Assembly: GCF_054482525.1 (NCBI RefSeq)
Contig: NZ_CM137006.1
DNA: 64,000 nucleotides
Reading direction: 5' to 3' (one strand)
Of the stretch, positions 43,282 to 43,703 are shown in pieces. Position numbers and translations under genes: made by a program. The stretch's first letter is position 1. Every line of letters begins with the position of its first letter. Under the pieces are notes generated by a model, which did no database searches, had not been told where the DNA came from, and worked only from the letters and a program-made list of their open reading frames with translations.

Positions 43282-43703
43282 CTAAAGTCTCCAAAAAATT
43301 ATTATCAGCAATGTCGAAACTTGCCGTTATATCTGCCACCGGAACGGGGTAGCAGAGTTTATGTTTTACCAGGGCGACCGTATCCTGCCGGAAGCGCTGG
43401 TTATTCACAATCGATTTAACACACCATTTACATTAAATTTTAGTGCTCAGCGACACTATTTTTCATCAGGTTGCACTCTCTCACATTTTTTGCGGTTGCA
43501 CCTTTCAAAAATGTTAACTGCCGCAGAGAAAAAGTCTGAGTTATTTTTTTAATCCCTGTCATATCGATTTCTTTTATTAACATTTCATTCATTTTTAAGC
43601 TTGCTACGCAAGTCACATTTAACATGGTTGCACAAAGTTGCAACATCATGGATATTTCACGATAACGTTAAGTTGCACCTTTCAGAACAACAGGAGTAAT
43701 GGC
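43282..43703. promoter_or_regulatory. put divergent control region with five GTTGCA PutA operator motifs
   Basis: GTTGCA at 43470, 43495, 43627, 43637 and 43672 between divergent putP and putA. Confidence 0.65.

Follow-up and report, generated by a model that had tools for sequence, protein, structure and literature searches.

The proline-utilisation (put) mechanism of Escherichia coli has been known since the 1990s and its operator sites since 2008. In this system an enzyme doubles as its own repressor, the proline supply switching its role, a picture that the finding reported here leaves unchanged. Zhou et al. in 2008 reportedly mapped five put operators of strain K-12 by gel shift, with GTTGCA in each, and according to the same 2008 work three operators are said to be needed in the repression of putA and two in that of putP. 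The crystal structure from that study is likewise said to show PutA52 on the 21-bp operator 2, in contact with the hexamer and three flanking base pairs.

PutA binds operators in the spacer between putA and putP and represses both genes when proline is absent (PMC8249747; PMC5879082; PMC5293562), and genomic SELEX in K-12 found this spacer to be the sole PutA target (PMC8249747). Proline reduces the flavin of PutA, and PutA then relocates to the membrane, where it works as an enzyme (PMC5879082; PMC5293562); the Kd of PutA for put control DNA is about 45 nM (PMC5293562). In what follows, the binding, the repression and the proline switch are taken from the literature.

The put locus

The DNA analysed here, a stretch of 64,000 nucleotides (the window), is E. 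coli DNA as judged from its sequence; the region is 100% identical to E. coli strain PCN033 and was found in 5,417 of 5,426 complete E. coli genomes. It carries putP (41773..43281, minus strand, 502 codons), for the sodium/proline symporter, divergent from putA (43704..47666, plus strand, 1,320 codons), for the trifunctional repressor, proline dehydrogenase and P5C dehydrogenase. Both gene names, proposed in an earlier note, were borne out by NCBIfam equivalog matches far over the cut-off: the putP ORF scored 1143 bits against NF011948 (PutP; cut-off 955), and the putA ORF 2659.7 bits against NF008772 (trifunctional PutA; cut-off 1750). The domain of ribbon-helix-helix (RHH) type that binds DNA is encoded by putA codons 1-52 (43704-43859, plus strand), and over residues 1-52 PutA does not differ from PDB 2GPE/2RBF, the RHH domain crystallised alone and with operator DNA. 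The 422-bp interval that the note had placed between the divergent genes is exact from start codon to start codon, occupying 43282-43703 between the putP ATG at 43281 (minus strand) and the putA ATG at 43704 (plus strand).

The put control region of E. coli K-12 resembles that of the window in having a 422-bp spacer with five hexamers at identical place and sequence. Relative to K-12 MG1655 the spacer shows four single-base differences (43307, 43352, 43611 and 43684), all of them outside the hexamers. The one at 43684 makes the stretch shared by the flanks of sites 2 and 5 one base longer, 13 bp in place of 12. We take sites 1 to 5 in the numbering of Zhou et al. 2008 to be those at 43470, 43495, 43627, 43637 and 43672 of the window, and the segment 43489-43509 (TTTGCGGTTGCACCTTTCAAA) is presumably the 'operator 2' duplex of 21 bp that was crystallised with PutA52 (2RBF). 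We base this presumed one-to-one match to the footprinted operators on sequence identity with K-12.

GTTGCA sites in the spacer

The five GTTGCA copies that had been noticed in the spacer are all real and all on the plus strand. Site 1 (43470..43475), on the putP side, sits in the conserved block AGGTTGCACT (43468-43477), followed by an invariant CTCAC at 43480-43484, and site 2 (43495..43500), 25 bp from site 1, sits in the conserved block GGTTGCACC (43494-43502). On the putA side, site 3 (43627..43632) is part of the invariant 21-bp block GGTTGCACAAAGTTGCAACAT (43626-43646), and 10 bp further, or one helical turn, the GTTGCA of site 4 (43637-43642) lies inside the perfect palindrome GTTGCAAC (43637..43644). 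Because of this palindrome there is a sixth match to GTTGCA, on the minus strand at 43639-43644. Site 5 (43672..43677) is 32 nt upstream of the putA ATG and has the 13-mer GTTGCACCTTTCA in common with site 2. The two bases after GTTGCA are CT, CC, CA, AC and CC at sites 1 to 5, and four of the five copies extend to GTTGCAC.

At the GTTGCA rate found in the rest of the window (3.5e-4 per base and strand), 0.146 copies per strand are expected in the spacer, against the five observed (Poisson P ~5e-7). When the spacer was shuffled 20,000 times with its dinucleotides preserved, five copies were never reached; GTTGCA is the commonest hexamer of the spacer, and 422-bp stretches elsewhere in the window hold at most three on one strand. 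By itself the hexamer is unspecific, with 44 other copies in the window at background frequency, and the count for the whole window (50 copies against 56 expected) is at background level; the signal therefore lies in the clustering and the shared orientation, not in the hexamer per se. Chance as the origin of the cluster is excluded by these statistics together with the conservation described below.

Conservation across Enterobacteriaceae and beyond

Eighty Enterobacteriaceae loci with close PutA relatives were fetched and the putP-putA spacer was delimited in 79 (78 of the fetched loci plus E. coli PCN033), of which 72 were aligned. Exact GTTGCA is found in 72/72 spacers at site 1 (43470), site 2 (43495) and site 4 (43637), and in 71/72 at site 3 (43627), where E. 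whittamii has GTTGCG; at site 5 (43672) it is found in 6/72. Columns outside the operators show a mean identity of 65% to the E. coli base. The distance between sites 1 and 2 is 25 bp in all species except one Buttiauxella (26 bp) and that between sites 3 and 4 is 10 bp in every species, while the gap between the two site clusters varies from 130 to 136 bp. Invariance extends past the hexamer into wider blocks, AGGTTGCACT at site 1, GGTTGCACC at site 2 and GGTTGCACAAAGTTGCAACAT at sites 3 and 4, which fit a protein reading about 9 bp.

The put region of Salmonella enterica, for which PutA autorepression has been described (Ostrovsky de Spicer and Maloy, 1993, as cited in PMC5293562), is like that of E. 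coli in its divergent putP and putA, its exact sites 1-4 and the same 25-bp and 10-bp spacings. It differs in being devoid of site 5 and in carrying an inverted TGCAAC about 105 nt before the putA ATG, where E. coli has TGCTAC. Inverted TGCAAC copies some 101-105 nt upstream of the putA ATG are found in Salmonella, Kluyvera and E. albertii. Pluralibacter and relatives have an extra copy about 42 nt before the putA ATG, and an extra plus-strand copy at 100-103 nt is present in Pseudocitrobacter, Enterobacter mori and an Enterobacteriaceae isolate (LSJC7).

More distant putA loci were obtained by tblastn of a plasmid collection that includes some mislabelled chromosomes, and the 600 bp upstream were scanned, a region in which about 0.1 copy of GTTGCA per strand is expected. 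Three of these loci encode a PutA with an E. coli-like RHH N-terminus, and GTTGCA lies 410, 400, 89 and 79 nt before the putA ATG in Proteus mirabilis, 256, 231, 99 and 89 nt before it in Plesiomonas shigelloides, and 234, 77 and 67 nt before it in Aeromonas caviae. The 10-bp GTTGCAC...GTTGCA tandem is found by putA in all three of these RHH-bearing genera (Proteus, Plesiomonas and Aeromonas). Rhizobium johnstonii and Azospirillum oryzae, whose PutA proteins have no RHH domain, have no plus-strand GTTGCA in the 600 bp upstream of putA, and a plasmid copy from Burkholderia thailandensis, with a strongly diverged RHH region, has a single GTTGCA, located inside the upstream gene. Small as the sample is, the comparison links the motif cluster to the RHH domain, independently of the published operator mapping.

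The PutA proteins of R. johnstonii and A. oryzae begin at the enzyme arm region and contain no RHH-like sequence, and the PGAP name 'trifunctional transcriptional regulator/...' probably over-annotates them. The putA locus of R. johnstonii has an adjacent Lrp/AsnC regulator.

Site 5

The six spacers with site 5 are those of E. coli, two further Escherichia species and E. whittamii; the site is absent from the aligned spacers of E. albertii, Salmonella, Citrobacter, Klebsiella, Enterobacter and the remaining taxa. It is thus confined to the E. coli clade, and conservation therefore lends it no support. Within E. coli, 5,418 of 5,426 genomes have the 49-bp segment around site 5 at an identity of 95% or more, a figure that describes an identity band and not the hexamer itself. 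In E. albertii, GCTATACCTTTAAG aligns where E. coli has GTTGCACCTTTCAG, and the inverted copy about 102 nt upstream is present in E. albertii and Salmonella and absent in E. coli. The five-site claim is refined accordingly by the alignment: only four of the sites are conserved beyond Escherichia, and these make up a deeply conserved core.

We lean slightly towards a history in which sites 1-4 are ancestral and site 5 is a recent gain of the E. coli clade, through about three point substitutions in an existing ACCTTT context. An origin of site 5 as a duplicate of site 2, suggested by their shared 13-mer, was considered and rejected, as the ACCTTT flank is already present in E. albertii, which favours point substitutions. 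If the gain is real, Escherichia has changed the wiring of putA autorepression, with a further block placed downstream of the promoter and, as a side effect, a 12-13-bp direct repeat with site 2 that is able to delete the putA promoter. The four-site core set against the Escherichia-only fifth site would then be a small natural experiment in operator gain.

A natural deletion of 177 bp, equivalent to about 43508-43684, was observed in E. coli 2013C-3492 (NZ_CP027445.1), one in about 5,420 genomes. Its ends coincide with GTTGCACCTTTCA, the direct repeat of 13 bp that sites 2 and 5 have in common, so that one hybrid site is left, and sites 3 and 4 are removed together with the putA promoter region.

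Candidate promoter elements

On the putA side, the TTGCAC of site 3 (plus strand) is a candidate -35 hexamer, and the conserved block GATATT (43651-43656, plus strand), 17 bp after it, a candidate -10. A Shine-Dalgarno block, ACAGGAG (43690-43696, plus strand), is conserved in the 72-spacer alignment. Alternative putA promoters may be composed of the TTGCAA of site 4 with GATAAC (43661-43666), or of the conserved TTAACA (43619-43624) with CAACAT (43641-43646). A consensus promoter scan of the spacer made no canonical call at sites 3 and 4; its single call was a weak candidate in the putP direction (43466..43437), in a poorly conserved stretch.

Two further kinds of element were observed in the spacer. 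The CRP-like sequence TGCTACGCAAGTCACA (43602-43617) has two mismatches to TGTGA-N6-TCACA, and its GTCACA half is conserved across genera; CRP-pattern matches of this stringency are not above chance in the window. It is a plausible site of catabolite control between the two operator clusters, to be read as a candidate only. Conserved TTAACA/GTTAAC blocks, which GTTGCA does not explain, lie at 43405-43422, 43512-43517, 43577-43582 and 43619-43624, with the sequences TCACAAtcGATTTAACAC, TGTTAA, TTAACA and ATTTAACA among them. They may serve the several put promoters as -35-like hexamers, or else be recognised by another protein.

The putP leader

The upstream ORF ymdG (43440..43466, minus strand; b4737 in K-12 RefSeq) runs in the putP direction and encodes the eight residues MKNSVAEH. 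Ribosome profiling fixed the length of this ORF (bioRxiv 10.1101/511675), and the tagged YmdG protein has been detected (PMC6001520). Given that ymdG is translated and that its ATG is only 4 bp past site 1, a transcript in the putP direction would start at or upstream of sites 1 and 2.

Further along the leader, a hairpin is predicted at 43355..43333 (minus strand), made up of CUGCUACC, the loop CCGUUCC and GGUGGCAG, with the core CGUUCCGG invariant. Across 17 species from 12 genera, compensatory changes affect six of the eight pairs of the hairpin. Pairing holds in 92% of the cells, where sliding the partners gives 50% at most, and the covariation score was reached by none of 500 shuffles. 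The G-U pairs favour the putP-sense strand. In a published map of 3' ends, an RNA end at K-12 position 1079260 corresponds to 43326 of the window, 7 nt beyond the hairpin, with putP 45 nt further on. The hairpin may be a regulatory or RNA-stabilising element of the putP leader. The leader also contains a highly conserved block, GCTTCCGGCAGGATACGGTCGCC (43374-43397, minus strand), in which CAGGATA is invariant across genera; it could be the -10 of a proximal putP promoter, with TTGTGA (43410..43405), or a GGA-type protein-binding site in the RNA.

A search of the spacer against Rfam gave no match, even at an E-value of 5. Elsewhere in the window, on the plus strand, matches over the gathering score were obtained for the PyrC leader (7199-7248), the ES036 (CssrF) sRNA (16379-16421), the ES056 sRNA (27293-27384), a tRNA (32985-33069) and Ysr251 (34418-34611).

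Discussion

The proposal of the earlier note that the GTTGCA motifs are PutA operators is supported by their presence at the same sites as in K-12, by the identical RHH domain, by the phylogenetic footprint and by the co-occurrence of motif and domain. We estimate a probability of about 0.94 that the five hexamers serve the E. coli put regulon as its operators, with a PutA RHH dimer predicted on each. The five-site operator set is an already described E. coli system, and its regulation is textbook knowledge. The main value of the result lies in confirming both gene calls, putA and putP, and in showing that the window holds the standard E. coli proline-utilisation switch.

The motifs might instead be conserved purely as promoter elements and not as repressor sites, which we consider very improbable. 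Their TTGCAA and TTGCAC match the -35 consensus TTGACA at 4/6 and 3/6 positions, and the -10-like GATATT follows site 3 at a distance of 17 bp, but the extended heptamer GGTTGCAC is invariant at three separate places, every copy has the same orientation though the genes diverge, and the conserved 5' G and 3' C reach past any -35 hexamer. Moreover, sites 3 and 4 are only 10 bp apart and therefore cannot both be the -35 of one promoter. Since an overlap of operator and promoter is a requirement of repression, promoter function complements the operator reading and does not replace it. Less probable still is that the hexamers are half-sites of CytR, whose optimal site is modelled as two GTTGCATT octamers, in direct or inverted orientation about 2 bp apart, and which would act here with CRP. 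The half-site GTTGCATT listed in RegulonDB does contain GTTGCA (PMC3013702), and the CRP-like sequence at 43602-43617 is close by. Against CytR, TT follows GTTGCA at none of the five sites, and only sites 3 and 4 are near enough for a pair spaced by 2 bp, neither of which matches the octamer; the motif cluster also tracks the PutA RHH domain across taxa, and the spacer was selected by PutA alone in genomic SELEX (PMC8249747).

Protein coding would be a further cause of conservation, as PGAP annotates a 69-residue hypothetical protein (WP_000979516.1; 43649..43440, minus strand) across sites 1-4 in most RefSeq E. coli genomes, and the last eight codons of this ORF are the real ymdG. The ORF is reduced to 34 residues in E. 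albertii, however, and in other genera, among them Citrobacter, Klebsiella, Raoultella and Enterobacter, it is cut short or frame-shifted; the part of the spacer that holds its middle is the least conserved and is rich in indels, ribosome profiling backs only the eight-codon ymdG (bioRxiv 10.1101/511675), and conservation peaks at the hexamers, without codon periodicity. The call of the 69-residue ORF is very likely spurious, only its last eight codons corresponding to the validated ymdG, and coding as the source of the conserved hexamers is scarcely credible.

If the hexamers are PutA operators, repression could proceed as follows. The N-terminal RHH domain of PutA, encoded directly downstream, would bind every site in dimeric form. 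The invariant tandem of sites 3 and 4, one helical turn apart, would overlap the -35 and spacer part of the putA promoter, and site 5 would lie between the candidate promoter and the ribosome-binding site, at or just past the start of transcription, so that the three sites would jointly shut off putA. Sites 1 and 2, which would lie where the putP-direction transcript begins and a little upstream of ymdG, would shut off putP, PutA bound there blocking either initiation or early elongation. In the presence of proline the flavin of PutA would be reduced, the protein would take up its enzyme role at the membrane, and both promoters would be freed. What we infer in this scheme is which hexamers make up the promoters and how the sites share the work.

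Among described regulators, CytR has operators with a GTTGCA core in common with the put sites, the last two bases of the octamer differing at all five of them; it is a LacI-family protein with no known link to put. The RHH repressors Arc, MetJ, CopG and NikR are closer in that, like PutA, they read a short near-palindromic site in the major groove with the beta-ribbon of a dimer, the 8-bp core at the put sites being GTTGCAAC or GTTGCACN. PutA seems to bind with one dimer per site, whereas most RHH repressors use paired sites and dimers of dimers (PMC2777438). Unlike Arc, MetJ, CopG and NikR, PutA has its DNA-binding module fused to a 1,320-residue enzyme.
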